In this document: positions 18,901 through 64,000 of the stretch, in pieces
How the letters are laid out: each line of letters opens with the position of its first letter
How positions within the stretch are numbered: position 1 is the stretch's first letter
IMG/VR virus record: IMGVR_UViG_3300025450_001231
Length of the DNA stretch: 64,000 nt
Reading direction: 5' to 3' (one strand)
From: a virus
Lineage: Duplodnaviria; Caudoviricetes
Made by a program: the position numbers and the translations under genes
The notes under the pieces: generated by a model
The model's input: the letters and a program-made list of their open reading frames with translations, nothing else
The model's database searches: none
What the model was told of the DNA's origin: nothing

Positions 18901-21900
18901 AGCGGAATAATTAATGCTGGTTCTGGAATTAGAACTACTGGCAATATTATTCCTACTGCAGATTTAACATACACATTAGGAAATTCAACAAATAGATTTA
19001 AGAGTCTATATGTTGGCGGAAATACAATTTACATCGGTACTGCTAATATCAGCTTAGATAATAACGGCAATGTATTGATTAACTCAGGTATCGGCAATCA
19101 AATTAATTTGTCAAATACTGGTGTATCATTGACTTCGTTTAACACTGATATCAGTAGCGGAGTATTATACGGTAACTTGATTGGTACATATGCTAATGTT
19201 ACTAATCTATATGCACAAAACGGTACATTCGGAGTAGGAGTCGCTACAGGCACATTGAATGCCAATGCTAATGCTACGGTTAACGGACTAACTGTTAATA
19301 ACAGCGGCACATTTGGTACAACACTACAAGCAGTTGCTGGTATCCAAAATACGGTAATTGGTAATGTAACTGCAGCTGCTGGTTACTTTACAAACTTAAA
19401 TGCCACTCAAGCAATTAGTGGCGGTACAACATTAAACATTGGTGGAAATGCTACAGTTAATGCATTGGCAGTTAACAATTCAGCTACAGTTGGTGCAACA
19501 CTGCAAGCAGTTGCTGGTATCCAAAATACTGTAATTGGTAATGTAACTGCAGCTGATGGTTATTTTAATAATCTATATAGCACAAGTGTTAACAATAGCG
19601 GTAACCTAATAGTTAATGGCTTGACAGTCAACACAAGTGCAGTAATACAAGATACACTAAGTGCTGGTAGTTTAGAAAATACTCCAATCGGTACAGTTAC
19701 TCCTGCTACTGGTACATTTACTGACATCGTTGGTTCTACTGAAAGCGTTAGTGGTAATTCCACAGTTAACGGTTTAACTGTTAATACTAGTGCTACTATT
19801 GGTACAACATTGGGTGTTACTGGAAATGCTACAGTTGGTAACTTGATTACTGCAGGCTCTTCAGGAACTGGTAATATCAGTGGTGTAAACACAATATTTG
19901 CAATATCTGCAAACATCAGCGGAAACACTACAACTAATCAATTAACAGTTAATTCTAATGCAACAATTGGCGGAACATTGGGTGTTACTGGCGGTAACGT
20001 AAATATTGCATCAGGCTACTATTTGGTAGGTAATATTGCTGGTTCAATATCTGGTGCAGTCAGTGCAGCAGGTAATGATACACAAGTTCAATATAATAAC
20101 AGCGGATTGATTGGCGCTAATGCAGGATTTAGATTTACTTCAAGTACTGCTACATTAAATGTAAATGGTAGTGTAGTTACTGACACAGTAAATGCAGCTA
20201 CTATTGGTAACACAGGGGCTGCATTAACAGGTGCAACATTGGCAACTAGCAGTACTGCTACAGTTGGTGATTCATTAACTGTACAGGCCAACGCAACAAT
20301 CAATGCATTGAGTGTTAATAATACCGCTACAATTGGTAGTACATTGAGTGCAAGCAGCATAGAAAATACACCAATTGGTACAATTACACCAAATACTGGT
20401 GCATTTACTACAGTTAACGCCAGCGGAACTGCTACAGTTAACGTATTGCATAGTAACGGAGCAGTTACCGGTACTGCAATTACTGGTAGCGGAAATGCTA
20501 CAGTTAATGCATTAAGTGTTAATAACTCTACTACAGTAGGTGGTACATTAAGTGCTACTGCTGGTATCCAAAATACAGTAATTGGTAATGTAACTGCAGC
20601 TGCTGGTTACTTTACAAACTTGAATAGCACAAGCCTTAACGATAGTGGCAATGCTACTGTTGACGGTTTAACAGTTAATACTAGTGCAGTAATTGGAACT
20701 ACATTGGAAGTTCAAGGTAACATCCAAGCTGGTAACATTTCAGCCAATGGCTTAGAGTCTTCAAGCACAGTTAGTGTACTTGGAGTACAAAATTCAACTG
20801 GTGTAGGTACTGGTGCATTGACTGTTGTTGGTGGCGCAAGTATTAGTAAAGATTTGTATGTTGGTGGTACATTGTATGTTCCAAATCTTGCATCAACAAA
20901 TTCTACAATACTAAGTATAACCGATCCATTGTTGTATTTGACTGCTAATACACCATATCCATACAATTATGAAATTGGTATTTACAGTCACTATATTGGT
21001 GGCACATATGCTGATGCTAATGCAAATGTATATCAACATACTGGTTTGGTACGTGACCACGCAGACATGACTTGGTATTTGTTCAGTAATGCAGCTGAAC
21101 CCGGTGGTGGATTAGTTGATGTAACAAATCCTAATGTACAACTCGATTCTTTACACATTGGATCATTGTTTAGCTCTGCTATCTATGGTAGCAGCACATT
21201 AGATGTCCAAGCAAATGCTACCGTAAATGCATTGACAGTTAACAATTCTGCTACAATGTCTACATTGGGTGTAAGCGGAACTGCTACAATGGCTAATGCT
21301 ACAGTAACAGGTACATTAACTACAAATGGTATTACAATTACCGGCGGTATCCAAAATACTCCAATTGGTAATGCTACCCCAAATACAGGTACATTCACAA
21401 CATTGATCGGTACAACAGAAAGTATCAGTGGTAATGCAACAGTTAATGCAATGACTGTTAACACTAGTGCAACAGTTGGTAGCACATTAAATGCAGCTGG
21501 TGGTGTACAAAATACTCCAATTGGTAACGCAACACCAAACACTGGTACATTTACAAACATTATTGGTTCTACAGAAAGTATTAGTGGTAATGCAACAGTA
21601 AATGCACTAACAGTTAATACTAGTGCAACAACCGGTGGTACATTAAGTGCTGCAGGCGGATTGCAAAATACAATTATTGGTAATGGAACTGCAGCGGCAG
21701 CTACTGTAACAACATTGATTGCAACTACAGAAAGCGTAAGCGGCAATTCTACTGTAAACGGGTTGACTGTTAATACTAGTGCAACAACTGGTGGCACATT
21801 CAATGCAGCCGGTGGTGTACAAAATACCCCAATTGGTAATGCAACACCAAACACTGGTTTGTTTACAACATTGACATCAACAGGCAATACAACAGTAAAT

Positions 21901-25176: not shown

Positions 25177-25207
25177 TTAACCATTCGATTAGTTTTTCCT
25201 ATATCGA

Positions 25208-25213
25208 TAAATA
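25208..25213 (+). promoter_or_regulatory. T4-late-type promoter core TAAATA
   Basis: gaTAAATA lies 7 nt before the ATG at 25221, with no SD. Confidence 0.6.
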
Positions 25214-25220
25214 CTAAACT

Positions 25221-28200
25221 ATGGCTAATTCGTATCTTTTTGCACAGACTGGCTTTGATGCTGGCAACATATCCATTAACTCCAATGCGAGTTCGCTAAC
25301 TGGAGCCAGTTTAATAAGTTCATTATCTTTTAATGGTAATGAGTTTCGGGGAGATACTTTTTACGGAAACGTCAATGCAACTGCATTACTTGCCAATAGC
25401 ACAGTAAATGCAACTTCATTGGACTCTGGAGCATTTCGATCTCTTGGTGGCGCAAGTATTAACAAAGACTTGTATGTCGGTGGCACTTCTGTATTTGGCG
25501 TTGTTTCTGACAATTATATCAAAGTTTTAGGTGCTTCTAGTGGATCGTATCCTGCACTTTTAGCAGGCGGTATAGATAGCAATGTAGGATTAATTATTGG
25601 TGCAGGCGGAACAGGAAATATTCTGTTTAACGGACTAACCAGTACAACACCTGGAATTGCAACCAACTTCAAAATTTTAATGCCTGTTGATTCAGGATAT
25701 TCGAATTACATAACAGTTGCAGGTGCAACCCCAGGTAGCAATCCGATTATAAGTGCTGACGGTGTCGATGCTGATATCAGCATATATATTACACCAAAAA
25801 GATATGGCGATGTTGTTGTATCCAGCAATATTACTGCTAACGGATTTTTTTATAGTAATGGTATAAGTGTTTCCCAACAAGGACCGCAAGGACCGCAAGG
25901 ACAAACTGGTTCACAAGGTCCGCAAGGACCGCAAGGACAAACCGGAGTTAGTGTAACACTCTTAGGTACTGTAACAGATTATACATTTCTTCCAAATACT
26001 GGAAATACATTAGATAATGGATACATTACTGCAAATACAGGTAATGTTTGGTTCTGGGGTGCAGATAACACATGGCACGATGCCGGAAAAATAGTAGGTC
26101 CAACTGGACCGCAAGGAGTGCAAGGACCGACTGGCCCAACAGGCGCACAAGGACCACAAGGACAACAGGGCAATACTGGAGTACAAGGACCGCAAGGCCC
26201 AACCGGAGTACAAGGACCAACTGGTTTACAAGGTCCTACTGGAGTACAGGGTGTACAAGGACCAACAGGGGTACAAGGACCGCAAGGTCCAACTGGAGTA
26301 CAGGGCCCGCAAGGCCCGATTGGTGTACAAGGTCCACAAGGACCAACAGGACACACTGGTGCTCAAGGACCGCAAGGCGTACAAGGGCCACAAGGACCTA
26401 GCGGAGTTAGTAATGTGCCAGGTCCACAAGGACCACAAGGGCCAATTGGTGATATTGGTGTACAAGGACCCACTGGAGCACAAGGACCGCAAGGACCACA
26501 AGGCGATACTGGACCACAAGGACCATCTGGGGCACAAGGACCGCAAGGACTCACTGGCGTACAGGGACCACAAGGACCACAGGGAAGTTTAGGACTACCT
26601 GGACCACAAGGACCACAAGGTGTTCAAGGAAATGATGGAGCCACCGGAGCACAAGGACCACAAGGCCCTCAGGGACAAACAGGTGCAGATGGTGTTCAAG
26701 GGCCACAAGGACCATCTGGATCGCAAGGACCACAAGGACCAAGCGGAGCACAAGGACCACAAGGACCGACAGGTATATTTTCTGGTAATACAACAGAAAG
26801 AATTGTAACTACTAATACTTCTCCAGCAATTAGCGCCGGAACTGGTGCATTGCAAGTAAGCGGCGGAGCAGGAATTTCAGGAGATTTGTATGTTGGCGGA
26901 AACTTATTTGTTAATAGTTTAAGTACTATTAGTACAACAGTATTAAGTGTACAAGATCCGTTGCTATACTTGAACGGTAATGTAACGTATCCTTATAATT
27001 ACGACATTGGATTCTACAGTCACTTTACCGGTGGTACTGGTAATATCTACCAATACACTGGATTAGTTAGAAACTATGCAGATAACAATTGGTATTTGTT
27101 TAGTAATGCAGCTGAACCAGGCGGCGGATTATTTAATTTAACTGATACTAATATAGCATTAGATAATTTGTATCTTGGAGAAATTAACACCAGTGGTAAT
27201 TCTACCATTAATGGTTTAACTGTCAACACTTCGGCAACAGTAGGCAATACACTAGGTGTTTCTGGCAATATTATTTCTGCTGGTATTGTAACTGACAACT
27301 ATTATTATGCCAATGGTGCTCCGTTATCTTTTGGGTCCGGCGGACTTGCAACAGATCTATTATTAGGAACACCTACATTAGGAAATTTGGTTAGCAATGC
27401 ACTAACATTGACTGCAAATACCAGTATAACCAATAGTATTGCTGAACTGAATTATATATTAGGAAAATTAGTACCGGCCAGCCCACCAACATTCCCTGGC
27501 GGCCAAACTTTATCTACACCATCTGGTTTAGTTGGTCCATTTAGAATGGCCAATTTCACACAAACTGATAACACAAATTCTGGTAACAAGAGTGTAGCAG
27601 CCGGCACTACAGTTAGTGTTGCCCGAACTGCATCTTATACTACTGGGTCTATAACAAATGTTGGACCTGGCAATAGCGGTAATGTTATTGCTTATATTAA
27701 TGGTGCTCCGGCAGGATCAGTGGCATTGACTGGTAGTAGCAACGGAACATATAGTAATTTGGTAATTTTTAATAATCAGGATTATCATAATGTTGTCAGC
27801 ACAGTTACTGCTGGATTCTGGTCATCATTCAGTACATATATGACAGGCACAGTTCATCCAGGCTGGAATGAAGTTAATATTAGAGACTCTGCAGTATCTG
27901 CAAATACTTCCGTTCCTTATTGGTATTATGATAATAATACAGTAACTGGGCCAGTGTTTAGCAATACTGCAATAAGTTTAACAACAAACACAGTAATTTA
28001 TTCAAGTACTATTCCTCACTTTACCAATGCAGCACAATTTACATTAACTGGTAATGTAGCAAAACTCAGTGGAGATACGTTCCCGTCGAGTAATACATTT
28101 ATCACAGGCACTAGTGCAACTGGTTGGCAAACTCCGTCAAGTGTTACTTACAGTTCAGCGACTGGTATAACTTATCCTCTAGCCCGCAATTTATATGTAA

Positions 28201-51300: not shown

Positions 51301-51336
51301 TTTTATACCACAACAACCGAATATTTAATAAAATAA

Positions 51337-51342
51337 TAAATA
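51337..51342 (+). promoter_or_regulatory. T4-late-type promoter core TAAATA
   Basis: 7 nt before the ATG at 51350. Confidence 0.55.
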
Positions 51343-51349
51343 CTGTACT

Positions 51350-54300
51350 ATGTCCAGACTATCATCCGTATCATCATCCGTAGGTGGCTCAACTTCAACT
51401 GCTGCAGCAACCAACCAAAATGTCGCCGTTCTCGCAACTAACCCTCCGAGTAACTTAATACCGCCCTCGATTACAGGAACAGCTCAGGTTAATCAAACTT
51501 TAACTGCTAACGTAGGAACTTGGAGCGCAAATACTATTAGTTATGCATATCAGTGGGTCAATAGCGGAACTGGAAATATTAATTCTGCTACAAATTCTAC
51601 TTATACTGTACAAACTACAGATTTGGGTTATACACTGGACTGTATAATTATTGCAACAAATTCATATGGAAATTCGTCAACTGCATCAAATCTATCATCT
51701 GCAGTGGTACCAGGCGTACCATTAGCACCAACAATTGGAACTGCTACAGACATAGACGGTAGTTCTGCAACAGTTAGCTTTACTGCACCAACCAACAATG
51801 GTGGTGCAACAATTACCAAGTATGTAGCAACTGCAAACGTAGGAGGAGTTACTTCTACAATAACTCAAGCGGGTTCTGGAACTATTACAGTAACTGGATT
51901 ATCGGTTGCAACTTCTTACACATTCACTGTAGCCGCAGTAAACAGCGTTGGTACAAGCCCATCAAGCAGTCAGAGTAATGCTATTACCACTGGCGCGAAA
52001 CCTTGTGCCCCGACTATCGGCAGCGCAAGTGAATTGACACCAACATCTGCTGCAGTATCCTATACTGCACCAACTTTCAACGGCGGAAGTACAATATTGT
52101 ACTATACTGCTACTGCAAATGTAGGCGGAATTACTGCTACACTAAGCACATCAAGCTCAGGTACAATTACTGTAACTGGACTAACAACCGGCAACAGCTA
52201 CACATTCACAGTTACTGCTACCAATAGCATTGGCACAAGTAACGCCAGTGCAGCAAGTAACAGCCTAACAGAAGCTACCGCACCAGGTGTACCAACTAGT
52301 GTAACTGCTACCGCTACAGGAGCAAATACAGCTAATGTAGCATATACTGCACCAATTAGCAATGGCGGCATTGCAATTAACTACTATGTAGCTACAAGCA
52401 ATGTTGGAAATATAACTGCTACATTAAGTACTTCTACATCAGGTACAATTAATGTAACTGGATTGACATCGGGTGCTAGCTATACATTCACAGTTAAAGC
52501 TTCTAATTCATATGCTACAAGTAATGCCAGCGCAGCAAGTAATGGAATTACAGAGTGGACAGTGCCTGCAGCACCAACTATTGGAACAGCTACTGCCACA
52601 AGTGCAAATACTGCTAACTTAACATATACTGCACCAGTGAACAACGGTGGAACTACAATTACTAGCTATGTAGCTACAAGCAATGTTGGTGGAATCACTG
52701 CTACATTAAGCACATCCAGCTCGGGCACATTCTCAATAACTGGATTGACATCAGGTGCCAGCTATACATTCACAGTTACTGCCATCAATAGCGTTGGAAC
52801 AAGTAATGCCAGTGCCGCAAGTAACGGAATTACAGAGTGGGCTGTACCAGGAGCACCAACAATTGGAAATGCAACAGTAGCCAATGCTACTGCAGTAAGT
52901 GTGGCATATACTGCACCAGCAAGCAACGGTGGCACTGCAATATTGTACTATACTGCCAGCAGCAATATTGGTAATATAACTGCTACACTAAGCACAACTA
53001 GCTCGGGTACTATTACTGTAGCGGGATTGACAACAAATGTTTCTTACACATTCACAGTTACTGCTACTAATACTGTTGGAACTGGCAATTCAAGTGCTGC
53101 AAGTAATACAGTAACTCCAGTTGTTAATAACGGACCTTGCGCACCAATAATTGGATATGTTGCCGCAACTAGTGCCAATTCAGCAATAGTAACATACACT
53201 GCACCTGCAAGTAACAATGGTGCTACAATCAGTAGTTACATAACAACAAGTAATGTCGGCGGAATTACTGCTACAGTAAGCACTTCAACATCAGGCACTA
53301 TTACAGTAACTGGCTTGACTTCCGGCACTTATTACTCATTTACAGTACAAGCAGTTAATGCAAACGGCACCAGTGCAGCAAGTGCAGCCAGCGCTCCGAT
53401 CGCTCCAGGAGTGGGATACTTATGGGTATGGGGAGGACAAAATAACGTAGGGCAATTGGGTACAAACAATCAAACAGTATACTCTAGTCCTGTACAATTA
53501 GGTGCAGGTAGTAACTGGAAAATGGAAAGTATTACCGACAGTGCCAGTGGAGCTGTTAAATTTGATGGAACTCTCTGGACCTGGGGTTATAATAACTATG
53601 GTATGTTAGGTCTGTCTAATACAACTAGCTATTCTAGTCCAAAACAAGTCGGTGCATTAACCAATTGGAGTTCAGTAATTACTCGATTTAATACTGTTAC
53701 TGCACTTAAAACTGACGGAACGATATGGGCTTGGGGCTACGGTGGTCTTGGTGCTTTAGGTCTAAACAACCTTACTAGTTATTCAAGTCCAAAACAAGTC
53801 GGCGCATTGACAAACTGGACTGCTATTTCCACAGACGGTTATACAACGTTTGCTATTAATTCATTAGGCCAATTGTGGGTGTGGGGTAATAATGGTAATG
53901 GCCAGCTAGGATTAAATAATGCCAATAATTATTCAAGTCCTAAACAAATCGGCACATCAACTAATTGGAAACAAATGTCCACATATAATGCTTCGGTTAT
54001 TGGACTTAAAACCGACGGAACTATATGGAGCTGGGGCAATAACAATTGGGGGCAACTAGGATTAAATAATTCTTTTCAGACTTATAGTAGTCCAGTACAA
54101 GTTGGTACACTAACTAACTGGAAACAGGTCATTATGAATAATTCTGTTGGAGGTGGAACTAAAACCGACAATACATTATGGATGTGGGGTTATAATGGTA
54201 CTGGCCAATTGGGATTAAATAATGTTAATAATTATTCAAGTCCAAAACAAGTCGGCTTGTCTACTTCATGGGCATTGTTAACCCCATCTTTCAATGTTAC

Positions 54301-57300
54301 TGGAACATTTGCAACACAAAATGATGGTACATTATGGACCTGGGGATATGGTGTTCCTGCAGGTGCATTAGGTTTAGGTGTTGCTACTAGTTATAGCAGT
54401 CCTAAACAAATAGGTTCGTCGGCTGGATGGGTATCGATATTTGGTAATGGTGGTACTAGAATAGTAAGTGCTGTTGCACCTTCCGTACCTAACCTGACAG
54501 CTACTGTAGTCGGCGGAGTTGGAGTGGCAGTTGGTGTAAAATTTGGAAATGTTACCGGTGCTGCCGGCGGCATTACCACTGTGGTCACAAGTAACCCAGG
54601 TGGAATTACTGCAACTTTAACCACTAGTTCATTATATGGTACAGTTACAGTAACTGGATTAACACTCAATACATCATACTCATTTACAGCCGTGGCAACA
54701 AATGCCATAGGATCAAGTAATACAAGTGCTGCAACTTCCTCCGTTTACTATGCTAATACAGCACCTTGTGTTCCAACAATTAATAGCGCCGTACAAGTTG
54801 ATACAAATACTGCAGGAGTTACTTACTTTGCACCGCTAAACAATGGCGGACAACCAATATTATACTATACTGCTACAAGCAGTCCAGGTGGAATTACTGC
54901 GACATTGAGTCAGTCAGGTAGTGGAACAATTACAATAGCAGGTTTAACAACAAATGTTTCTTATACATTCACAGTTACTGCTACCAATAGTATCGGCACA
55001 AGTAATGCTAGCCCAGCTAGCCCCAACTTAACTATAGTAACTACTACAGTACCTGGTACACCAACAGTTACTGCAACACAAACTGCAGCAAATACTGCAG
55101 TAGTTTCGTTTACACAACCTACTAACGGTAATGCTACAATACAGTACTATACAATTGTTGGATCGTCTTCGTCGTATACTGCTACACTAAGCCAGTCTGG
55201 CGCAGGTACTGTTACAGTAACCGGTTTAGCTACCGCTACTCCGTATACATTCACAGTTACTGCTACTAACTCAGTTGGTGCTGGCACTGGCGGTACCAGC
55301 AGCGGATTAACACTAGGAACTCCGCAATTCTTATGGTCGTGGGGTTGCGGTACTGCTTCAGGTATAGGTGTTTCAACAAATTATAGTAGCCCAGTTCAAG
55401 CTGGTAGTGCGCTAAATTGGAATATGATAGTCGGTAGTAGTGGTACTCAAACATCTGCAGGTATCAAACAAGATGGTACATTGTGGATGTGGGGCTACAA
55501 CACCTACGGACAATTAGGATTATCCGCAACAGGAACGGTTCTTAATATTACTCAAGTTGGTGCACTTACCAATTGGAAACAAGTTGCAGTTGGACCAACT
55601 GAGACTATTGCTGTAAAAACCGACGGTACATTGTGGAGTTGGGGACAAGCTCTTAACGGGCAGTTAGGTCTGAACACCAGCATTCTTAATAACTATTCTA
55701 GTCCAAAACAAATCGGTGCAGGAACAAATTGGGCATTTGCGTCAATGGGATCACAACACGCACTTGCAATTCAAACCAATGGTACATTGTGGACTTGGGG
55801 ACAAAACAACTATGGACAACTAGGATTGAATAATACTTCAACTTACAGTAGTCCAAAGCAAGTTGGAGCATTAACCAATTGGTTGAAGGCATCTGCGGCC
55901 GGTTACAATGTGGTCGCACTTAAAACCGACGGAACATTATGGGCCTGGGGAATTGGTACTAGTTATCAGCTAGGTCGAGGAAATACTTCTTCTTATATTA
56001 GTCCAAAACAAGTTGGTGCATTGACTACTTGGGCATCTTTTGCGAATGGATGGCAGTTTGTATTGGCTACTAAAACCGACGGAACATTGTGGAGTTGGGG
56101 AACTGGCTCATACGGACAATTAGGATTGAATAGTACATCGGCCGCTTCAAGTCCAACACAAGTTGGTACAGGAACAAATTGGAGCGTATTTAACCCAAAT
56201 CAAGGTGAAAATCTTCAACAGTACATGACTGCAACGAAGACCGACGGAACATTATGGAGTTGGGGACGTAATTATCAAGGTGCATTGGGACTAAATCAGT
56301 CAACAATCACATTGTACTCAAGTCCAAAGCAAGTTGGTTCATTAACTACTTGGCTCAGTACAGACGGTACTTCGGCCTTGGCAACAGTGCCAGCTGGTGC
56401 ACCTTCAGCGCCAGCAGTTAGTAACGTTGCAGTTATCTCAGGAGTAGGAGTAGGCGTAACATATACAGTTCCTGCAAGCACCAACGGATCGGCAATTATA
56501 AAATATATTGCAACTAGTACCCCAGGTGGAATTACAGCCACAGTAACTCAAGCAACTGCTGGTACAATTACAGTAACTGGATTAACTGGTGGAGCAACTT
56601 ACACATTTACTGTTACTGCAGTCAACGGAGGGGGCGGCAACACTAGTGTAGCATCCGGTAACGTAACTTATACTGCAATTGCACCATCTGCACCTGCTGC
56701 AGTCACTGCAAATGTAATAAGTCCAAATACTGCAACAGTAAGCTTTACTGCACCTTCTTCTAGCGGTGGGGCACAAATACTTGGTTATATAGTTTCTTCT
56801 ATTAATTCAAGTACTATTTCAAGTGTTACTTTAGCACAATCATTCCCAGGTACTGTTACTTTAACTGGTTTGACAAACGGCACCACATATACATTCTCTG
56901 TAGCTGCATTTAACGGTAGTGCAACTGGACTAGCCACTAGTGCTAATGCTAGTGTTGGTGCACCAGGCATACCAACAATAGGTACAGCGGTTTCTATGGG
57001 TACAACAACTGCTAATGTATCATTTACTGCACCAATTAACACTGGTGGTTACCCAATTACCAGCTATGTGGCTACAAGTAGTCCAGGTGGAATCACTGCT
57101 ACATTGAGCCAAGCAGGCGCTGGAACTATTACTATAACCGGTTTGTCTTCAAGCACTTACTATTCATTTGCAGTACAAGCTGTTAACAGCTATGGAACTA
57201 GTAATGTTAGTGCTTCGAGTAATAGCATATATACTCAAGGAAAACCGTATGCACCTATTATTGGTACAGCAACTGTATTAGGAAATTCTTCAGCGGTAGT

Positions 57301-60300
57301 TACATACTGTGCACCAACATTTAACGGTGGATTTGCAATTACCAGCTATGTGGCTACAAGTAGTCCAGGTGGAATCACTGCTACATTGAGCCAAGCAGGC
57401 GCTGGAACTATTACTATAACTGGATTAACAACAAATACTGCTTATACATTTACAGTGCAAGCTGTTAACAGCTATGGAGCTGGTCCTATAAGTGGCTCAA
57501 CTCCTAAAGTAACACCAATTAACTCTTACTTGTGGACCTGGGGACCCGGTACCTACGGTAGTAATGCATTAAATAATATTCTTTCATATTCAACTCCAAG
57601 GCAAGTCGGCGCACTTTCTGGATGGCTTCAAGTATCCGGTAGTTACGGATGGAATGGAGCAGCTATTAAAGCCGACGGAACATTATGGACCTGGGGGTAT
57701 AATGTTACGGGAGGCCTTGGGTTAAGTAACATTATCAATTACTCAAGTCCCAAACAAGTTGGTGCATTGACCAATTGGGCACAGATCGCAATGACCCCTA
57801 ACGGTGTTGCTGCAATTAAAACTGACGGAACCTTGTGGACCTGGGGATACAACAGTTTTTATCAGCTGGGTCTAAGTAATAGTACTTGGTATTCAAGTCC
57901 AAAACAAGTTGGTGCATTAACCAATTGGAAATCAGTATCTATGGGTAATATGGCCATGGCAGCTGTTAAAACAGACGGTACACTATGGACGGTAGGCAAT
58001 AACACCTATGGTGGTCTAGGTCTGGGCGACACTACTTATAGAAAGAGTCCTACTCAAGTCGGTTTACTAACTAATTGGTTACAGGTTGCGGCATCCGGTT
58101 ATCATGTGCTAGGATTAAAGACAGATGGCACGTTCTGGGGTTGGGGTGCTCAAAGCGGATGGGGTATAATTGGTGTTAGCGGTACAGGCGCATATTCTAG
58201 TCCAAAACAAGTTGGTGCATTAACCAATTGGAAAACATTTGGCACAACCAATTCTGCTGCTTTTGGTATTAAAACAGATGGTACACTTTGGAGTTGGGGC
58301 CTTAACTCTAGTGGTCAATTGGGATTAAATAACCTTACATCATATTCTAGTCCAAAACAAGTTGGTTCATTAACCAATTGGAAATCGGTAACAAACGACA
58401 TAGGAAGCAGTAATAATAATGCTCCGTCTTTTGTGACTGCTGTAAAAACTGATGGTACTCTTTGGTCTTGGGGAGCAGGCACAAGCGGGTATTTGGGATT
58501 AGGCAATGTAACTGGATATAGTTCACCAAAACAAATCGGCTCGAGTACTTCTTGGATTATGGCATCAGGATCGATGGCTATTAGTTCGTCACCGGCGGGA
58601 CCAGCAGCTGCACCAACTATAGGTGCAGCTACAAATGTTACTGGGGTAGGCGTTACAGTAGCATATACTGCAAGTTCAAGCGATAACGGATCGGCAATTA
58701 CAAGTTATGTTGCAACTAGTACCCCAAGCGGAATTACTGCTACAGTAACTCAAACAACATCAGGTACGATTACAGTAACTGGATTAACAACTGGAACTAG
58801 TTATACGTTTACAGTTGCCGCAGTTACTGGTGCAGGTCTTGGTAATGCCAGTGCATCATCTAGCGCAGTTACATATCTAGCAAATGCACCATCAGCACCA
58901 ACAGGTGTTACAGCCAATGCAATATCATTAACTAGTGCTACAGTTGCATTTACTGCACCTGCAAACGGCGGATCGCCGATCTTGAGTTACAAACTTGCTG
59001 GTGCACCGGGATGTATTGCTGCCACAATAAGTCAGGCTACATCAGGTACATTTACTATATCAGGATTAACTACTGGTACTAGATACTCATTTACAGTAGC
59101 TGCAACAAATGGAGCAGGAACAAGTACTAATTCTTCAGCAAGCTCAATTAGTTTAGGCGTACCTTGCGTACCTACTGGAGTAACTGGAACACCAACTGGT
59201 TCGTCTACTGCTACAGTAAGCTATATTGCACCAGCTAGTAATGGCGGAACACCGATTACAAATTATGTTGCAACTGCAAATGTAGGCGGAATTACTGCTA
59301 CTGTAACACAAGCATCTTCTGGTACAATTACAGTAACTGGATTGGGAACAAAAGCTTCTTACACATTCACAGTTACTGCAATTAACAGTTACGGAACAAG
59401 TAATGCAAGTACCCCAACCGGTACAGTAACTACATTTGGCGTACCTTGTGCACCAGTTATTTGCGGAGCTATACCAATTCTTGGCGCAACTTCTGCGGCA
59501 GTTATATATACTGCTCCTGCCAATGGCGGTTCACCGATTACAAAATATGTTGCAACTGCAAATGTAGGCGGAATTACTGCTACATTAAGTCAAGCAGGAT
59601 CGGGTACAGTTACTGTATCTGGCTTGACAAACGGCACATACTATTCGTTCACACTACAAGCAATTAATATTGCAGGCACAAGCTCATCGAGCTCACCAAG
59701 TGGTGCAGTTGCTCCAGGTGTCGGCTATTTGTGGAGTTGGGGTCAAAACAACTACGGGCAGACCGGTTCCAATGCTTTAGTAACTTATTCTAGTCCTGTA
59801 CAAATAGGTGCCGGTAGTAATTGGAAAATGGTATCTGTTGGTTCATGTTTTAGTAGCGCAGCTATCAAATTTGATGGAACATTATGGACCTGGGGATATA
59901 ATGGTCAAGGAAACTTGGGATTCAGTAATAAAACAAATTATTCTAGTCCAAAACAAGTCGGTGCATTAACTAATTGGAGTACAGTAGTTATGCGTACTAA
60001 TAATGCTACTGCAATTAAAACTGACGGAACATTGTGGACTTGGGGTTACAATGGTGGCTATGATTTAGGATTAGGCAATGGTACATATTATTCAAGTCCT
60101 AAACAGGTTGGCGCACTAACTACTTGGAGTTCAGTAGATTCAGACGGTAGCACTACAGTAGCTATCAAAACTGACGGAACAATATGGGCTTGGGGTCAGG
60201 GCGGTAACGGACAAATTGGAGTAAGTACTACAGCAAATTACAGTAGTCCAAAACAAATCGGTGTATTAACTAATTGGAAACAAGTTTCTGTCAATGATGC

Positions 60301-62689
60301 AGCTGTTTTTGCAATTAAAACCGACGGCACACTGTGGGCTTGGGGTAATAATTACACTGGTCTATTAGGACTAAACTCACAAACAGCTAACTATAGTAGT
60401 CCAAAACAAGTTGGTGCATTGACTAACTGGGGCCAATTACAAATTTCTGGATCTTCTTCAGGTAGTTCAACTGGCGCAATTAAAACTGACGGAACATTGT
60501 GGACTTGGGGCACTGGCGTTAACGGTGCTTTGGGTCTAAACAACCTTACTAGTTATTCAAGTCCAAAACAAGTCGGCGCATTGACAAATTGGCTTCAACT
60601 TGCTTCTTTAAGCCAAGTTGTATTAGGAATGGTTGCAATCAAGAATAACGGAACAATGTGGTCTTGGGGTACTAATAGTGCACCTGGTCGCTTGGGATTG
60701 AATAATGCTACTAGCTATTCAAGTCCAAAACAAATTGGTGCAGGAACAACTTGGACATATGTTGCAGGAACTATGGCTCTTGGTATCGCTACAGGATCTC
60801 TACCTCCTTGCGCTCCTAGTATAAGTGCTACAAATGTTGGCGGAGTTGGCGTAGCAATAACAGCCAACGCAGTAGTCAATAACGGAAGTCCAACTAAGGT
60901 AGTGGTCACTAGTACACCAGGCGGGCTAACTGCAACATTCACTGCACTAGGCGGAACAGTTACAATAACCGGATTTACATCGGGCACAACATATACATTT
61001 ACTCCAGTTGCAACTAATAGCTTCGGATCTACCACTGGTTCAAATAGTTTAGCAACTTATTCTGCAGTATTACCAGGTGCACCTGGTATTGGTTTAGCCA
61101 AGGCAATCACATTGTGTAGTGCAACTGTAATATTTGGCTCGCCAAGTAACGGCGGAAGCCCAATACTGTACTACACTGCCACAAGTAATCCAGGTAGTGT
61201 GACTGGTACACTAAGTCAGGCAGGCAGCGGAACAATCACTGTAACTGGTTTGACCGCAGGTACTAGATACACATTCACAGTTACTGCAACTAACGCAATT
61301 GGCACTGGTAATTCCAGTACACCTACAACATCAATCAGTGTTGGTGCACCATGTGCTCCAACTATCTGCACAGCAACCGCAACAACTACAACAGCAAATG
61401 TACCGTATACTGCACCGATAAACAATGGTGGATCAACAATTACAAGTTATGTAGCTACAAGTAATCCAGGTGGTGTGACTGGTACACTAAGTCAGGCAGG
61501 CAGCGGAACAATTTCTGTTTCTGGATTGTCAGTAGGGGGTAGTTACACATTCACAGTTGTTGCTGTCAACAGTTATGGAACTAGTAACGCAAGTGCTAAT
61601 AGTAACAGTGTAAGTATACCGTTAACACAAGGTAACTTATATATTTGGGGTAGTGCTGCTTCCGGCCAGTTAGGTCTAAACAATGCAACAGCATATTCGA
61701 CTCCTGTACAGGTTGGAGGTAGTAATACTTGGGCACAAACAATTTTAGCAGGTAACTGTCACTCATTTGCGTTAGATTCAGCTGGACATTTGTGGGCGTG
61801 GGGTCTAAATAGTTCTGGACAGTTAGGTTTAGCTAATACAACTAATTATTCAAGTCCGAAACAAGTTGGCTCAAATACTTGGAAAGTAATTGCCGGCGGT
61901 GACGCTTTTACAATCGGTATTACAACCAGCGGAGCACTGTTTAGTTGGGGTACACAATCTCAGGGACAATTAGGGTTAAACACTACTTCGGGTACTTATA
62001 ATAGTCCAAAACAAATCGGCGCATTGACTACTTGGTTGACAGTATCATCCGGACAATACATGACGCAAGCTCTTAAAACTGACGGTACATTATGGTTTTG
62101 GGGAGACGGCCGATTCTATGGACAAAGCGGACTCGGATTCCTAGGCAGTGTTTCTAGTCCTATCATGGTTGGCGGAGTGAATACTTGGAAATCTGTTAGC
62201 GTAAATTATTTCCACGTTGCAGCAATTCAAACCAATGGAACTTTGTGGACTTGGGGATTTGGCGGCTTTGGTGAAGGCGGCAGAGGAGTTACCGGAAACA
62301 CATCTAGTCCCCAACAGGTTGGTTCTTTGACCAATTGGGCACAGGTAGCATCTGGCAGAGATCACATAATTGCAGTCAAGACTGACGGAACATTATGGTC
62401 GTTTGGATACGGCTATGGCGGCGTACTAGGATTAGGTAATACTACAAGTTACTCAAGTCCCAAACAAGTAGGAGCATTAACTACTTGGAAAGCAGTTGCT
62501 GCTTCGTCAAATGGATATAACAGCTATGCAACAACAGGCACTGCATTATATGCTTGGGGAAATAACGGCAACAGTGTATTGGGAATCGGTAATGCTACTA
62601 GCTATAGTTCACCAAAACAAGTCGGATCTGCAACTCAATGGATTGGTGTATCTGCAGGACCAAATTCTGCAGCAGGTATTCATATATAA
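51350..62689 (+). CDS. Giant (3779 aa) FN3 + RCC1/BLIP-II-like beta-propeller protein
   Basis: One N-terminal Ig-like unit and about 20 FN3-like units (YTFTVTA.N..G). Five blocks of seven RCC1-like repeats (KTDGTLW.WG....LG.....YSSPKQVGALTNW) lie at ~53415-54445, 55330-56370, 57525-58570, 59725-60770 and 61630-62689. Confidence 0.88.
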   Translation: MSRLSSVSSSVGGSTSTAAATNQNVAVLATNPPSNLIPPSITGTAQVNQTLTANVGTWSANTISYAYQWVNSGTGNINSATNSTYTVQTTDLGYTLDCIIIATNSYGNSSTASNLSSAVVPGVPLAPTIGTATDIDGSSATVSFTAPTNNGGATITKYVATANVGGVTSTITQAGSGTITVTGLSVATSYTFTVAAVNSVGTSPSSSQSNAITTGAKPCAPTIGSASELTPTSAAVSYTAPTFNGGSTILYYTATANVGGITATLSTSSSGTITVTGLTTGNSYTFTVTATNSIGTSNASAASNSLTEATAPGVPTSVTATATGANTANVAYTAPISNGGIAINYYVATSNVGNITATLSTSTSGTINVTGLTSGASYTFTVKASNSYATSNASAASNGITEWTVPAAPTIGTATATSANTANLTYTAPVNNGGTTITSYVATSNVGGITATLSTSSSGTFSITGLTSGASYTFTVTAINSVGTSNASAASNGITEWAVPGAPTIGNATVANATAVSVAYTAPASNGGTAILYYTASSNIGNITATLSTTSSGTITVAGLTTNVSYTFTVTATNTVGTGNSSAASNTVTPVVNNGPCAPIIGYVAATSANSAIVTYTAPASNNGATISSYITTSNVGGITATVSTSTSGTITVTGLTSGTYYSFTVQAVNANGTSAASAASAPIAPGVGYLWVWGGQNNVGQLGTNNQTVYSSPVQLGAGSNWKMESITDSASGAVKFDGTLWTWGYNNYGMLGLSNTTSYSSPKQVGALTNWSSVITRFNTVTALKTDGTIWAWGYGGLGALGLNNLTSYSSPKQVGALTNWTAISTDGYTTFAINSLGQLWVWGNNGNGQLGLNNANNYSSPKQIGTSTNWKQMSTYNASVIGLKTDGTIWSWGNNNWGQLGLNNSFQTYSSPVQVGTLTNWKQVIMNNSVGGGTKTDNTLWMWGYNGTGQLGLNNVNNYSSPKQVGLSTSWALLTPSFNVTGTFATQNDGTLWTWGYGVPAGALGLGVATSYSSPKQIGSSAGWVSIFGNGGTRIVSAVAPSVPNLTATVVGGVGVAVGVKFGNVTGAAGGITTVVTSNPGGITATLTTSSLYGTVTVTGLTLNTSYSFTAVATNAIGSSNTSAATSSVYYANTAPCVPTINSAVQVDTNTAGVTYFAPLNNGGQPILYYTATSSPGGITATLSQSGSGTITIAGLTTNVSYTFTVTATNSIGTSNASPASPNLTIVTTTVPGTPTVTATQTAANTAVVSFTQPTNGNATIQYYTIVGSSSSYTATLSQSGAGTVTVTGLATATPYTFTVTATNSVGAGTGGTSSGLTLGTPQFLWSWGCGTASGIGVSTNYSSPVQAGSALNWNMIVGSSGTQTSAGIKQDGTLWMWGYNTYGQLGLSATGTVLNITQVGALTNWKQVAVGPTETIAVKTDGTLWSWGQALNGQLGLNTSILNNYSSPKQIGAGTNWAFASMGSQHALAIQTNGTLWTWGQNNYGQLGLNNTSTYSSPKQVGALTNWLKASAAGYNVVALKTDGTLWAWGIGTSYQLGRGNTSSYISPKQVGALTTWASFANGWQFVLATKTDGTLWSWGTGSYGQLGLNSTSAASSPTQVGTGTNWSVFNPNQGENLQQYMTATKTDGTLWSWGRNYQGALGLNQSTITLYSSPKQVGSLTTWLSTDGTSALATVPAGAPSAPAVSNVAVISGVGVGVTYTVPASTNGSAIIKYIATSTPGGITATVTQATAGTITVTGLTGGATYTFTVTAVNGGGGNTSVASGNVTYTAIAPSAPAAVTANVISPNTATVSFTAPSSSGGAQILGYIVSSINSSTISSVTLAQSFPGTVTLTGLTNGTTYTFSVAAFNGSATGLATSANASVGAPGIPTIGTAVSMGTTTANVSFTAPINTGGYPITSYVATSSPGGITATLSQAGAGTITITGLSSSTYYSFAVQAVNSYGTSNVSASSNSIYTQGKPYAPIIGTATVLGNSSAVVTYCAPTFNGGFAITSYVATSSPGGITATLSQAGAGTITITGLTTNTAYTFTVQAVNSYGAGPISGSTPKVTPINSYLWTWGPGTYGSNALNNILSYSTPRQVGALSGWLQVSGSYGWNGAAIKADGTLWTWGYNVTGGLGLSNIINYSSPKQVGALTNWAQIAMTPNGVAAIKTDGTLWTWGYNSFYQLGLSNSTWYSSPKQVGALTNWKSVSMGNMAMAAVKTDGTLWTVGNNTYGGLGLGDTTYRKSPTQVGLLTNWLQVAASGYHVLGLKTDGTFWGWGAQSGWGIIGVSGTGAYSSPKQVGALTNWKTFGTTNSAAFGIKTDGTLWSWGLNSSGQLGLNNLTSYSSPKQVGSLTNWKSVTNDIGSSNNNAPSFVTAVKTDGTLWSWGAGTSGYLGLGNVTGYSSPKQIGSSTSWIMASGSMAISSSPAGPAAAPTIGAATNVTGVGVTVAYTASSSDNGSAITSYVATSTPSGITATVTQTTSGTITVTGLTTGTSYTFTVAAVTGAGLGNASASSSAVTYLANAPSAPTGVTANAISLTSATVAFTAPANGGSPILSYKLAGAPGCIAATISQATSGTFTISGLTTGTRYSFTVAATNGAGTSTNSSASSISLGVPCVPTGVTGTPTGSSTATVSYIAPASNGGTPITNYVATANVGGITATVTQASSGTITVTGLGTKASYTFTVTAINSYGTSNASTPTGTVTTFGVPCAPVICGAIPILGATSAAVIYTAPANGGSPITKYVATANVGGITATLSQAGSGTVTVSGLTNGTYYSFTLQAINIAGTSSSSSPSGAVAPGVGYLWSWGQNNYGQTGSNALVTYSSPVQIGAGSNWKMVSVGSCFSSAAIKFDGTLWTWGYNGQGNLGFSNKTNYSSPKQVGALTNWSTVVMRTNNATAIKTDGTLWTWGYNGGYDLGLGNGTYYSSPKQVGALTTWSSVDSDGSTTVAIKTDGTIWAWGQGGNGQIGVSTTANYSSPKQIGVLTNWKQVSVNDAAVFAIKTDGTLWAWGNNYTGLLGLNSQTANYSSPKQVGALTNWGQLQISGSSSGSSTGAIKTDGTLWTWGTGVNGALGLNNLTSYSSPKQVGALTNWLQLASLSQVVLGMVAIKNNGTMWSWGTNSAPGRLGLNNATSYSSPKQIGAGTTWTYVAGTMALGIATGSLPPCAPSISATNVGGVGVAITANAVVNNGSPTKVVVTSTPGGLTATFTALGGTVTITGFTSGTTYTFTPVATNSFGSTTGSNSLATYSAVLPGAPGIGLAKAITLCSATVIFGSPSNGGSPILYYTATSNPGSVTGTLSQAGSGTITVTGLTAGTRYTFTVTATNAIGTGNSSTPTTSISVGAPCAPTICTATATTTTANVPYTAPINNGGSTITSYVATSNPGGVTGTLSQAGSGTISVSGLSVGGSYTFTVVAVNSYGTSNASANSNSVSIPLTQGNLYIWGSAASGQLGLNNATAYSTPVQVGGSNTWAQTILAGNCHSFALDSAGHLWAWGLNSSGQLGLANTTNYSSPKQVGSNTWKVIAGGDAFTIGITTSGALFSWGTQSQGQLGLNTTSGTYNSPKQIGALTTWLTVSSGQYMTQALKTDGTLWFWGDGRFYGQSGLGFLGSVSSPIMVGGVNTWKSVSVNYFHVAAIQTNGTLWTWGFGGFGEGGRGVTGNTSSPQQVGSLTNWAQVASGRDHIIAVKTDGTLWSFGYGYGGVLGLGNTTSYSSPKQVGALTTWKAVAASSNGYNSYATTGTALYAWGNNGNSVLGIGNATSYSSPKQVGSATQWIGVSAGPNSAAGIHI
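57054..57420 (+). repeat. Exact 85-bp duplication between adjacent FN3 units
   Basis: 57054-57138 is identical to 57336-57420, while the flanks diverge. Confidence 0.85.
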
Positions 62690-62711: not shown

Positions 62712-62744
62712 ATTTATAACCTGTAGCGATACAGGTTATAAATA
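62712..62744 (+). promoter_or_regulatory. 14-bp perfect hairpin (GCGA loop) whose 3' arm contains the late promoter TATAAATA (62737-62744)
   Basis: ATTTATAACCTGTA-GCGA-TACAGGTTATAAAT. The ATG follows 5 nt after the box. Confidence 0.7.
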
Positions 62745-62749
62745 TTTGT

Positions 62750-64000
62750 ATGAAAAAAACACTACACTTCTTATCGGGAATCCCCCGCAGCGGATCTACG
62801 GTTTTGGCCGCTATATTAAACCAAAATCCTGCTACTCATGTGTCGACTACGTCTGGGCTAGTTCATGCACTTGACGGTTTAGCAAATACTTGGTTCAGTC
62901 AAGGATTGCTTAACGAAAATGACCCTAACCGAACAAAACTAGCAGAAACAATGCGTGGAATGATCGATGCATTCTACGAAGATACTGATAAAAAAATAGT
63001 AATTGACAAAGGCAGAGGTTGGCCTATACCTGTTATTATGCAGGCGATGACACAGGTCTTAGGGGCCAAACCTAAAATTATTGCCACAGTTCGTCCAGTT
63101 CCTGATTGTATGGCTAGTTTTGTTAGAGTCGCAAAACCCAAAGACCTTGATATGTTTATGTATGAAGGCCAATTAGCTGATCATCTAAGAGCAGCCTACA
63201 TCAGTTTACAAACAGGGTATGAAGCAATGCCCGAATGTTTTTTATTTGTAGAATACGACAAATTAATTGCCGATCCTAAAAAAGAACTGCAACGAATACA
63301 TAAGTTTTTAGGACTTAAACCATTCAAATACAATTTTAGTAATATTGATGGATCCACTGTAAAAGAAGACGACGAAAATCTACACGGTTACGAAGGTATG
63401 CACGATATTAAACCAGCGCTAGCACGTCAACATACCGACGACCCAAAAGTAGTATTAAGTTACCATTACAATCAATTTTGCCAGCCAGAATTTTGGAGTG
63501 ACGGTAAAAGAACTACTCCGACCTTAGATGATCTAGACCTTCAAGTAGCTGCAGGAAAAATCGGAGATTTTGCCGAAGGATGGCGATTAGCACAAAAATT
63601 AGAAAAAGAAAGACCTGGCGATCATAGAGCTGCGTACAACAAAAGTTGGTATCTGCTTAGACAAGGGAAAATACTCGAAGGCTATACTGTCATGAATCGA
63701 GGACGTTTTTGTGGTATTATTGGAGATAGACTTCCAGACACACCTGCACCAGAATGGGATGGAAAATCTAAAGGTACAATATTATTGTACTGTGATCATG
63801 GATTAGGCGACCAAATACATCAAGTTAGGTATGCAAAAGACTTAGCTGCACGTGGCAATAAAGTTGTTGTATGTTGCACTGGTATGTTAGCTAGTTTATT
63901 CAAAGATGTCGAAGGAGTTAGCGCAGTAGTACAACATGGTGCAGAATTTGGTGTTTATCACGATTTTTGGACATTTGCTATGGTAGCTCCGGGCCTATTA
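62750..64000 (+). CDS. Sulfotransferase-domain + TPR-like + glycosyltransferase (GT9-like) fusion, 3'-truncated
   Basis: Hand translation gives 417 open codons. MKKTLHFLSGIPRSGSTVLAAILNQNP is the PAPS 5'-phosphosulfate loop, VRPVPDCMAS the R-x7-S 3'-phosphate motif, followed by VEYDKLIADP. Then come a helical segment (AEGWRLAQKLEKE..AAYNKSWYLLRQG) and EWDGKSKGTILLYCDHGLGDQIHQVRY, which resembles the W.G...ILL..EQGLGD.IQF.RY motif of TPR-GT9-like proteins. Confidence 0.82.
   Translation, partial: MKKTLHFLSGIPRSGSTVLAAILNQNPATHVSTTSGLVHALDGLANTWFSQGLLNENDPNRTKLAETMRGMIDAFYEDTDKKIVIDKGRGWPIPVIMQAMTQVLGAKPKIIATVRPVPDCMASFVRVAKPKDLDMFMYEGQLADHLRAAYISLQTGYEAMPECFLFVEYDKLIADPKKELQRIHKFLGLKPFKYNFSNIDGSTVKEDDENLHGYEGMHDIKPALARQHTDDPKVVLSYHYNQFCQPEFWSDGKRTTPTLDDLDLQVAAGKIGDFAEGWRLAQKLEKERPGDHRAAYNKSWYLLRQGKILEGYTVMNRGRFCGIIGDRLPDTPAPEWDGKSKGTILLYCDHGLGDQIHQVRYAKDLAARGNKVVVCCTGMLASLFKDVEGVSAVVQHGAEFGVYHDFWTFAMVAPGLL

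Follow-up and report, generated by a model that had tools for sequence, protein, structure and literature searches.

Virion glycosylation is documented for few phages only, and to our knowledge no phage particle has ever been shown to be sulfated. Mycobacteriophage glycosyltransferases encoded beside structural genes reportedly decorate virion proteins, and the targets attributed to them by Freeman et al. in 2023 are said to be capsid and tail-tube C-termini; sulfation, RCC1 and fused enzymes play no part in that system. Among bacterial enzymes, TibC and Aah are encoded beside their substrate adhesins (TibA and AIDA-I) and hyper-glycosylate a repeated adhesin motif in the cytoplasm, and classical GT9 enzymes have LPS cores as their substrates. 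In Caulobacter, flagellin is O-glycosylated by FlmG, a soluble, cytoplasmic enzyme made of a TPR part and a GT-B part, which binds its substrate, a structural protein that is secreted, through the TPR part and modifies Ser/Thr residues in it ahead of assembly (PMC7591256). Our literature search returned nothing relevant joining sulfotransferase, phage and RCC1, and nothing at all on RCC1 in tail fibres with receptor binding.

The gene considered here comes from a freshwater jumbo phage and lies at the end of the window, by which we mean the whole 64,000-nucleotide stretch of DNA that was analysed (Table 1). Megablast of the window against the phage collection gave no match. The reading frame (417 aa) runs off the end of the window without a stop, and a full-length copy (P0001, 588 aa) is 96% identical to it. 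Because full-length relatives measure 582–603 aa, the window ORF really is truncated, and a further part of the enzyme lies beyond the window, as the earlier note on this DNA had expected. AF2 models this 588-aa copy with a pLDDT of 92.2. On sequence and modelled structure together, the window ORF is the front of a predicted soluble three-part enzyme, in which a sulfotransferase is followed by TPR hairpins and a GT-B glycosyltransferase.

Table 1. Positions in the window of the fusion gene, its parts, the promoter-like boxes and the upstream fibre gene
Feature	Position	Strand	Basis or remark
Sulfotransferase-TPR-GT9-like fusion gene, 5' part	62750..64000	+	417 of ~588 codons
Sulfotransferase domain, residues 1-258, TPST-like fold	62750..63523	+	Pfam Sulfotransfer_3 1.2e-15; VIA fold match; invariant motif residues
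5'-PSB loop G-I-P-R-S-G-S-T, residues 10-17	62777-62800	+	
R115-x7-S123 motif (3'-phosphate)	63092-63118	+	
Two TPR-like helical hairpins, residues 259-324	63524..63721	+	AF2 helices; fold match; weak Pfam TPR_16 match
GT9-fold GT-B domain start, residues 342-417 of 342-586	63773..64000	+	VIA fold; Glyco_transf_9 via relatives
D-H-G-L-G-D-Q, residues 349-355; G-L-G-D portion	63800-63811	+	
TATAAATA / ATAAATAT box, T4-late-promoter-like	62737..62745 (TATAAATA 62737-62744)	+	Ends 4-5 nt ahead of ATG
ATAAATAC box	51336..51343	+	6 nt ahead of giant fibre gene
Sister boxes	15779, 25207, 36280, 42643	+	
14-bp hairpin, GNRA loop, between fibre and fusion genes	62712..62743	+	3' arm overlaps box
FN3/RCC1 fibre protein, 3779 aa, proposed substrate	51350..62689	+	Pfam RCC1 4.8e-198, WD40_RLD 3.2e-259, fn3 3.5e-142
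Five seven-bladed propellers in fibre	53375-54448, 55316-56374, 57515-58576, 59597-61027, 61613-62683	+	Propeller HMM domains

The first part is recognised by sequence profiles: the window ORF scores 58.8 bits with Pfam Sulfotransfer_3 (cut-off 27) and 40.8 bits with Sulfotransfer_1 (cut-off 22). The two PAPS-binding motifs read from the letters in the earlier note, GIPRSGST and R-x7-S, are intact, and their residues (G10–T17, R115 and S123) are invariant across 17 homologues. In a VIA comparison of model residues 1–258, the best fold matches were TPST1/2 (Z 18.4–19.5; with 5wrj, Z 19.5 and 242 residues aligned at rmsd 3.8). A sequence search of the PDB likewise gave TPST as the top match (E 0.0035). 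Other fold matches include CurM, olefin-synthase sulfotransferases and the Nod-factor enzymes NodH and NoeE, which are carbohydrate sulfotransferases. The phage enzyme shares the PAPS loop P-R-S-G-[ST]-T with TPST1/2, and one of its lysines aligns with Lys158 of TPST2. However, identity to TPST is 12–18%, the acidic context of TPST substrates is absent from the phage blade loop described below, and Glu99 of TPST2, which we take to be the catalytic base, aligns with the invariant Thr34 of the phage enzyme in the HMMER alignment. Since the catalytic Glu is not conserved, we rejected the filing of this domain as a TPST.

The helical linker seen by the earlier note appears in the AF2 model as four TPR-like helices (residues 261–270, 274–287, 292–304 and 308–321), which superimpose on TPR units of AspH and OGT with Z of about 11 and rmsd 1.6 over 66 residues. 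The GT-B-like start that had been placed at the DHGLGDQ motif likewise held up: G353 and D354 are invariant among 47 relatives, and model residues 342–586 match the GT9 fold, with WaaC (Z 16.6), WaaF (16.1), 3tov (15.5) and TibC (15.4) as VIA matches. Residues 250–588 gave no Pfam or NCBIfam match at E 0.01–0.1, the fusion protein itself does not match Pfam Glyco_transf_9, and a PDB sequence search with the C-terminal domain returned nothing useful; the identity of this domain comes from an exhaustive phmmer search together with fold comparison. That search found 27057 relatives, among them P0148 (E 3e-80) and P0248 (E 1.5e-60), both of which clear the Glyco_transf_9 cut-off of 22 bits, scoring 61.9 and 41.5; an E-value of 7.7e-17 with Glyco_transf_9 is reached among the relatives. 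As judged from sequence relatives and the model, the C-terminal part is a GT9-fold GT-B glycosyltransferase whose homology to GT9 runs through intermediates. Its G-D motif after strand 1 presumably holds the position of the WaaC catalytic Asp13, and a T-S-x-x-H-L-x-A-A-x-G motif is similar to the one that binds the donor in GT9 enzymes.

Each of the closest described enzymes differs from the phage fusion. WaaC and WaaF (CAZy GT9) are the best solved-fold matches of the glycosyltransferase domain, whereas the phage gene sits among fibre genes rather than LPS core genes and encodes TPR and sulfotransferase parts in the same protein. TibC shares the GT9-type GT-B fold (rmsd 3.1 over 241 residues) but lacks a sulfotransferase, and its substrate is a beta-helix, unlike the propeller that we propose for the fusion. 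Among Swiss-Prot models, the top Foldseek match is Caulobacter FlbA (P21296, E 1.3e-16), which, from its length, organism and older gene name, we take to be FlmG. Like FlmG, the phage protein is soluble in prediction and has TPR units directly before a GT-B domain. In FlmG the TPR domain covers about 310 residues and there is no sulfotransferase, while the fusion has two hairpins and carries its sulfotransferase at the N-terminus; the donor of FlmG is pseudaminic acid.

The earlier note had also placed the fusion directly downstream of an array of uncharged, Thr/Ser/Asn-rich fibre genes, and this describes the locus well. The gap after the 3779-aa fibre ORF is 60 nt, and the upstream fibre proteins contain 25–40% Ser+Thr+Asn and 2–6% charged residues, with many N-x-S/T sites in all 16 ORFs. 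Five seven-bladed RCC1 propellers are fused into the fibre immediately upstream, and only 39 of 50697 phage records hold such a propeller. Each propeller has seven copies of a blade loop with the consensus N-x-T-x-Y-S-S-P, and in propellers linked to the cassette (437 blades) its positions are kept at 82% (N), 85% (T), 69% (Y), 92% (S), 96% (S) and 93% (P). The control was 16 unlinked phage RCC1 blades, a small and distant set, so the loop conservation may reflect family history.

Of 37 related loci, spanning 48–96% identity, 36 have RCC1 beta-propeller genes beside the fusion. Among them are a small SU10-like phage (35–50 kb) and a fusion in the reverse order (glycosyltransferase, then sulfotransferase) on a 648-kb contig. 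In cultured cyanophages the parts occur unfused: S-SRM01 has RCC1 followed by a TPR-GT9-like gene and RCC1 followed by a sulfotransferase, both pairs coming directly after baseplate and long-tail-fibre genes, and BUCT-ZZ01 has the order tail fibre, RCC1, GT9-like. The loci share ancestry, so common descent rather than selection may account for part of this synteny. In metagenomes the fusion has more than 1200 close homologues.

This linkage is what sets our reading apart from the earlier one, which had sulfated glycans being built on Thr/Ser/Asn-rich fibres in general, with stabilised collagen as one outcome. A candidate sulfo-glycosylation cassette linked to fibres stands, but the comparison does not favour collagen, as most of the 37 loci have no collagen gene adjacent to the fusion and RCC1 is the constant neighbour. 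With RCC1 in 36 of the 37 loci, the propellers are a likelier target than collagen or generic Thr/Ser-rich fibres. We lean towards the reading that the fusion enzyme glycosylates and sulfates RCC1 propeller loops in the cytoplasm before assembly, with PAPS supplied by an operon that carries a late-promoter-like box. Taking domain identities, operon content, synteny and motif enrichment as observed, we infer the substrate, reaction order, donor sugar and timing. The ATAAATAT box would start the operon headed by the fusion gene, and the APS-kinase homologue encoded there would convert host APS to PAPS. The enzyme would then act on the fibre whose gene immediately precedes its own, at the propeller heads: its glycosyltransferase domain would add a sugar to the conserved blade loop, and its sulfotransferase domain would sulfate either that sugar or a loop hydroxyl. 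The outcome would be a ring of negative charge on otherwise uncharged fibre tips. Further glycosyltransferases, a methyltransferase and a GDP-6-deoxy-amino-sugar pathway are encoded in the same operon on the near-identical contig. Tentatively, then, the fibre tips may bear sulfated sugars or sulfated loop hydroxyls, made by a bifunctional phage enzyme from phage-made PAPS with N-x-T-x-Y-S-S-P as the acceptor. When the whole fusion was modelled in complex with the final propeller of the window fibre, the prediction scored 0.00, which speaks neither for nor against.

The window has six ATAAATAY sites, and the consensus box that the earlier note saw at the fusion gene is among them. Every site is intergenic, on the + strand and ahead of fibre genes or the fusion gene; the box of the fusion gene is common to four fibre genes. 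Expected numbers were 12.8 across the whole window and 0.32 within intergenic DNA, none of 20000 shuffles reached six, and no site was found on either strand of the ~63 kb of coding DNA. We read the box as a late-promoter-like element of the T4 type, common to the fibre genes and the fusion gene. At the fusion gene it overlaps a hairpin with a predicted RNA fold of -21 kcal/mol (z -5.7), which the related contig L001 retains with one loop change. Being only 4–5 nt before the ATG and within a hairpin arm, this copy of the box may not be the promoter of the fusion gene.

Genes beyond the window end were read from L001, which is 96% identical, and not from the window's own genome. There the fusion gene heads a translationally coupled operon whose genes overlap or abut, and ATAAATAY occurs as a single box in 14.9 kb, at the operon head. 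Besides a methyltransferase and 2OG oxygenases, one of them FlmC-like, the operon codes for an APS-kinase homologue, for GT4- and GT10-like transferases and for a GDP-sugar pathway. Of the partner genes that had been foreseen, further glycosyltransferases and sugar-nucleotide enzymes are thus present; for PAPS synthesis, the APS-kinase homologue is there and a cysDN-type ATP sulfurylase was not found among the downstream genes read. The kinase homologue passes Pfam APS_kinase (cut-off 21.1) with 28.8 bits in L001 and 61.1 bits in another locus, L012. With its family profile, each of the best 24 PDB matches is an APS kinase (E 1e-12 to 9e-8), and the leading Foldseek matches are APS kinases as well.

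Also downstream in L001 are a GDP-mannose dehydratase, a DegT protein, a hexapeptide acyltransferase, a WbuC cupin and a GT4, a set typical of O-antigen clusters, and the APS-kinase homologue of L001 bears a predicted membrane domain (DUF2061). With LPS heptosyltransferases among the closest solved folds of the glycosyltransferase domain, these genes would fit an enzyme that remodels the host envelope, building or altering sulfated glycans of the infected cell that are attached to LPS core, to O-antigen or to another lipid-linked acceptor, perhaps as a superinfection block or an aid to release, with the fibre adjacency incidental. We consider this unlikely, as the RCC1 linkage persists across very different phages and gene orders and the promoter box is common to structural genes. 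In addition, the sugar-nucleotide genes are lineage-specific, whereas the core of RCC1, sulfotransferase/glycosyltransferase and kinase is conserved across loci, and the TPR plus GT-B layout is that of the protein glycosyltransferases FlmG, OGT and SPY.

The composition of the 16 upstream fibre ORFs raises the question of whether many or all such fibres, collagen-like ones included, are decorated, rather than RCC1 propellers specifically. Hydroxylation followed by sulfation has been proposed in a comparative study for bacterial collagen-like and tail-collar proteins (PMC2938197), and the 2OG oxygenases of L001, as well as the collagen-like genes near the fusion in the window and in one other locus (L033), would suit such a general coat. 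It appears improbable, since most of the 37 loci lack an adjacent collagen gene and RCC1 is the constant neighbour in them, and since small phages carry the cassette without giant fibres. A target that is neither protein nor envelope (a small molecule, a secondary metabolite or DNA, the last a frequent substrate of phage glycosyltransferases, as reviewed in PMC12619734) is very improbable despite the fold matches to CurM, the olefin-synthase sulfotransferases, NodH and NoeE, as no PKS, NRPS or DNA-metabolism neighbours were found in any locus examined.

What is new here is the likely target, the RCC1 propellers. If the fibre tips do bear sulfated groups, the virion would be the first of a phage known to be sulfated, and aquatic phages would have a new and widespread layer of receptor-binding chemistry that enzymes can tune. 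The cassette has been found in jumbo phages, in small ones and in two cyanophages in culture. If the propeller heads are decorated, many aquatic phages would use enzymes and a PAPS supply of their own to adjust how charged their adhesion organs are and which glycans coat them. This would matter for host recognition, for how particles stick and aggregate in water, and for the sulfur economy of infected cells.

Some relatives fall outside this arrangement. A distant bacterial fusion of sulfotransferase and GT9 (P0249) adjoins a small kinase and has no RCC1 gene, and the marine cyanophages S-SKS1 and S-SCSM1 have sulfotransferase-only relatives and are absent from the RCC1-bearing records. L012 has a stand-alone propeller at 8853–10004 and encodes PfkB, a cytidylyltransferase-like protein, a cupin and an epimerase, but neither GmhA nor GmhB was found in it, and an ADP-heptose pathway is not established there. 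A conserved downstream protein of 131 aa shows no BLASTP similarity to the Phage_tail_APC protein of another locus (L035), yet holds the same place as the gene for it, and Atlas gives weak leads from it to tail assembly chaperones (0.88–0.89).

We consider it reasonably probable that the fusion is a cytoplasmic enzyme that glycosylates and sulfates loops of the RCC1 propellers (beta-propeller repeats) of the adjacent giant fibre, a reading that, like all functional claims here, draws on the sequence, the predicted structure and the order of genes. The enzyme would dock by its TPR part, glycosylate the propeller loops and sulfate either that sugar or a loop hydroxyl, with PAPS that a phage kinase makes from host APS; operon partners would add methylation and further sugars, and the fibre tips, otherwise uncharged, would acquire charge and a glycan coat. 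Our literature search found no paper on an RCC1 plus sulfotransferase/GT9 cassette or on a sulfated phage particle. Virion glycosylation is known in mycobacteriophages, according to work cited in PMC12619734, and a 2010 comparative study predicted bacterial hydroxylase-sulfotransferase-PAPS-synthetase operons targeting collagen-like and tail-collar proteins (PMC2938197).

The fusion ORF (62750-64000, +) encodes 417 residues with no stop before the window end. It carries the PAPS 5'-phosphosulfate loop G10-I-P-R-S-G-S-T17 and the R115-x7-S123 motif, both invariant in 17 homologues, and scores above the curated cut-offs of Pfam Sulfotransfer_3 and Sulfotransfer_1. Residues 349-355 read D-H-G-L-G-D-Q, with G353 and D354 invariant in a 47-sequence alignment in which identity is as low as 30%. 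The earlier note had described this ORF accurately: the PAPS motifs, DHGLGDQ, the box and the position after a fibre ORF are all present. There are more than 1200 metagenomic homologues, the best 120 of which are all 582-603 aa long, and the full-length homologue P0001 is 96% identical across all 417 residues, so about 171 codons are missing from the window copy. No signal peptide or membrane segment is visible in the fusion protein sequence.

Structural alignment of the confident AF2 model of P0001 (pLDDT 92.2, pTM 0.77) divides the protein into sulfotransferase (ST), TPR and glycosyltransferase (GT) parts, listed in the table. Lower-ranked folds for residues 1-258 are CurM (Z 16.1) and heparan-sulfate 3-O-sulfotransferases (Z about 14). 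Classing the ST domain as a tyrosylprotein sulfotransferase (TPST) was rejected, because the position of Glu99, the catalytic residue of TPST2, is an invariant Thr. The top Swiss-Prot-model match is Caulobacter FlbA (E 1.3e-16), which we take to be FlmG. TibC with TibA is a protein glycosyltransferase encoded beside its repetitive surface substrate, as is FlmG with flagellins. FlmG is a TPR plus GT-B flagellin O-glycosyltransferase (PMC7591256). The C-terminal domain has no direct match in Pfam, NCBIfam or PDB sequences; exhaustive phmmer gave 27057 relatives, among them P0148 and P0248, which reach Pfam Glyco_transf_9, and cyanobacterial 'TPR repeat proteins' in which the domain occurs 3-7 times. 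P0121, P0122 and about 100 other matches are such proteins of 1300-3100 aa, cyanobacterial and other bacterial, each with 3-7 tandem TPR plus GT9-like modules; this family of 27057 representatives is without a Pfam model of its own.

A propeller HMM made from upstream neighbours was run over all fetched loci, and in 36 of 37 the fusion lies among RCC1 seven-bladed propeller genes, usually two on its 5' side and one or two on its 3' side, a count that takes loci of 48-96% identity as they stand, regardless of kinship. The 37th reaches just 184 nt upstream, and these nucleotides encode the end of an RCC1-type blade. The fusion is flanked by genes for an RCC1 protein of 952 aa and a collagen-like protein in a 361-kb jumbo-phage contig, and in SU10-like phages (35-50 kb) by one RCC1 and one tail-module gene. 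A 648-kb contig has the domains in the opposite order, GT before ST; there the fusion follows an RCC1 protein as well as a methyltransferase and precedes a nucleotidyltransferase-APS-kinase fusion. The fusion's constant partners are a 131-aa protein, a methyltransferase and an APS-kinase homologue; nearby sugar-nucleotide genes differ between lineages. In the 361-kb relative, a protein with an Mtd_N (major tropism determinant) domain is encoded about 9 kb 5' of the cassette, a hint that a diversity-generating retroelement may target the fibre module that the two share.

In the cultured cyanophages S-SRM01 and BUCT-ZZ01, the cassette enzymes are unfused. S-SRM01 has baseplate wedge and long-tail-fibre genes, then RCC1, RCC1, a 'TPR protein' homologous to the GT9-like domain (E 2e-17), 2OG oxygenase, RCC1, sulfotransferase, glycosyltransferase and epimerase; BUCT-ZZ01 has tail fibre, RCC1-like and GT9-like (E 5e-38) genes in that order, and its 'BNR repeat domain protein' matches the RCC1 propeller. 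Propellers of this type occur in only 39 of 50697 phage records, and no cassette-type enzymes were found near the RCC1 genes of three unlinked phages (Clostridioides, Brevibacillus, Pseudomonas), which in the Clostridioides phage lie inside an annotated tail-fibre module. The GT part shares its fold with WaaC and WaaF, and the fusion could instead remodel host LPS or another envelope glycan; beside such regular propeller neighbours, we regard this as fairly unlikely.

In the window, the fusion starts 60 nt after the 3779-aa giant fibre ORF (Pfam fn3 and RCC1 repeats), the sole RCC1-bearing ORF present; here separate propellers became five propellers within one FN3/RCC1 protein. The 16 ORFs upstream of the fusion contain 25-40% Ser+Thr+Asn and 2-6% charged residues, and several have collagen repeats, a glycine-rich domain or a weak T7 tail-fibre match. 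The earlier note had proposed a general coat over all these fibres; we find this decidedly unlikely. Propeller loops, our preferred target, offer a possible acceptor: after G-Q-L-G-L-G, 437 blades of linked propellers read N (82%), x, T (85%), x, Y (69%), S (92%), S (96%), P (93%), as conserved as the structural glycines, with N-x-S/T in 86%. The giant window protein likewise has Y-S-S-P at 87-100%, and N-x-T in about half of its blades. The loop is absent from 16 blades of unlinked phage RCC1 proteins, a contrast that is a lead rather than a test because this control is small and phylogenetically distant.

Genes 3' of the fusion were taken from L001, an IMG/VR contig 96% identical over the fusion and upstream region, where they overlap or abut. 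Of the downstream genes that the earlier note had predicted, glycosyltransferases, an APS-kinase homologue and sugar-nucleotide enzymes are there, and a cysDN-type ATP sulfurylase was not seen among them. The first 24 PDB matches of the kinase-family profile are all APS kinases (E 1e-12 to 9e-8), as are the first matches of the kinase structure model. The L001 kinase has a diverged substrate motif (D-W-D-F-S...G-R vs D-L-G-F-S...D-R), and its C-terminal DUF2061 is a predicted membrane domain of two long helices with low pLDDT. At only 230 aa, the DegT-type ORF covers profile positions 23-94 out of 360; it has been either cut short or broken up by an assembly error, which would interrupt the inferred GDP-amino-sugar pathway in L001. 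Many related phages carry the APS-kinase homologue as a fusion, in either order, with a cytidylyltransferase-like domain (a nucleotidyltransferase of the HIGH / ISxT type); in locus L012 the two are adjacent separate genes. Because this pair mirrors the domains of bifunctional PAPS synthase, it may be a miniature phage PAPS synthetase. That the fusion acts on a small molecule or on DNA is very improbable.

Coordinates of features in the fusion protein, the window and related loci
Source	Feature	Position	Strand	Remark
P0001	ST part	residues 1-258		tyrosylprotein sulfotransferases, Z 18.4-19.5
P0001	TPR part	residues 259-324		TPR units of AspH and OGT, Z about 11, rmsd 1.6
P0001	GT part	residues 342-586		WaaC, WaaF, a GT9 protein, TibC; Z 15.4-16.6
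L001, after fusion	131-aa protein		+	conserved
L001	SAM methyltransferase		+	
L001	P-loop kinase with DUF2061 tail	6331-6948	+	APS-kinase homologue
L001	GT4 glycosyltransferase		+	
L001	WbuC-type cupin		+	
L001	hexapeptide acyltransferase		+	
L001	DegT-type aminotransferase ORF	9027-9719	+	short
L001	GDP-mannose 4,6-dehydratase		+	
L001	GT10-like protein		+	
L001	two 2OG-oxygenase-like proteins		+	
L002	kinase-nucleotidyltransferase fusion	13956-14789		
L007	same	12326-13180		
L013	same	11578-12414		
L025	same	15081-15917		
L028	same	16012-16797		
L037	same	10013-10789		
L033	Mtd_N domain protein	1-362		361-kb relative
L038 (S-SRM01)	gp338, GT9-like domain	7281-8630		GenBank 'tetratricopeptide repeat protein'
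L039 (BUCT-ZZ01)	UTS52179, GT9-like domain	8063-9778		GenBank 'hypothetical protein'
Window	2892-aa ORF	15949-24627		no Pfam match; 40% Ser+Thr+Asn, 4% charged, 133 N-x-S/T sites
Window	ATAAATAY site	15779	+	162 nt upstream of ORF at 15949
Window	ATAAATAY sites		+	ahead of fibre genes at 25221, 36307, 42671, 51350
Window	ATAAATAY site	62737-62744	+	ahead of fusion gene

The box before the fusion gene, TATAAATA, is one of six ATAAATAY sites in the window, all on one strand and confined to its 692 intergenic nt; the coding sequence, about 63 kb, contains none, with 12.8 expected over the whole window. Shuffled AT-rich intergenic pieces would hold 0.32 sites, and six were reached in 0 of 20000 shuffles. 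Four sites precede fibre genes and one the fusion, bearing out the earlier suggestion of a common box, and the only site in the 14.9 kb of L001 heads the operon; this placement supports a shared T4-late-like signal of fibre genes and fusion. At three genes (25207-25223, 51336-51352 and 62738-62752) the box ends only 4-6 nt from the ATG, with no Shine-Dalgarno sequence between, so that, were the box a T4-type -10 element, the late mRNAs would have little or no leader. The box at the fusion gene is also the 3' strand of a strong hairpin with a stem of 14 bp (-21 kcal/mol, z -5.7), which could alternatively be a terminator or stabiliser of the fibre transcript.
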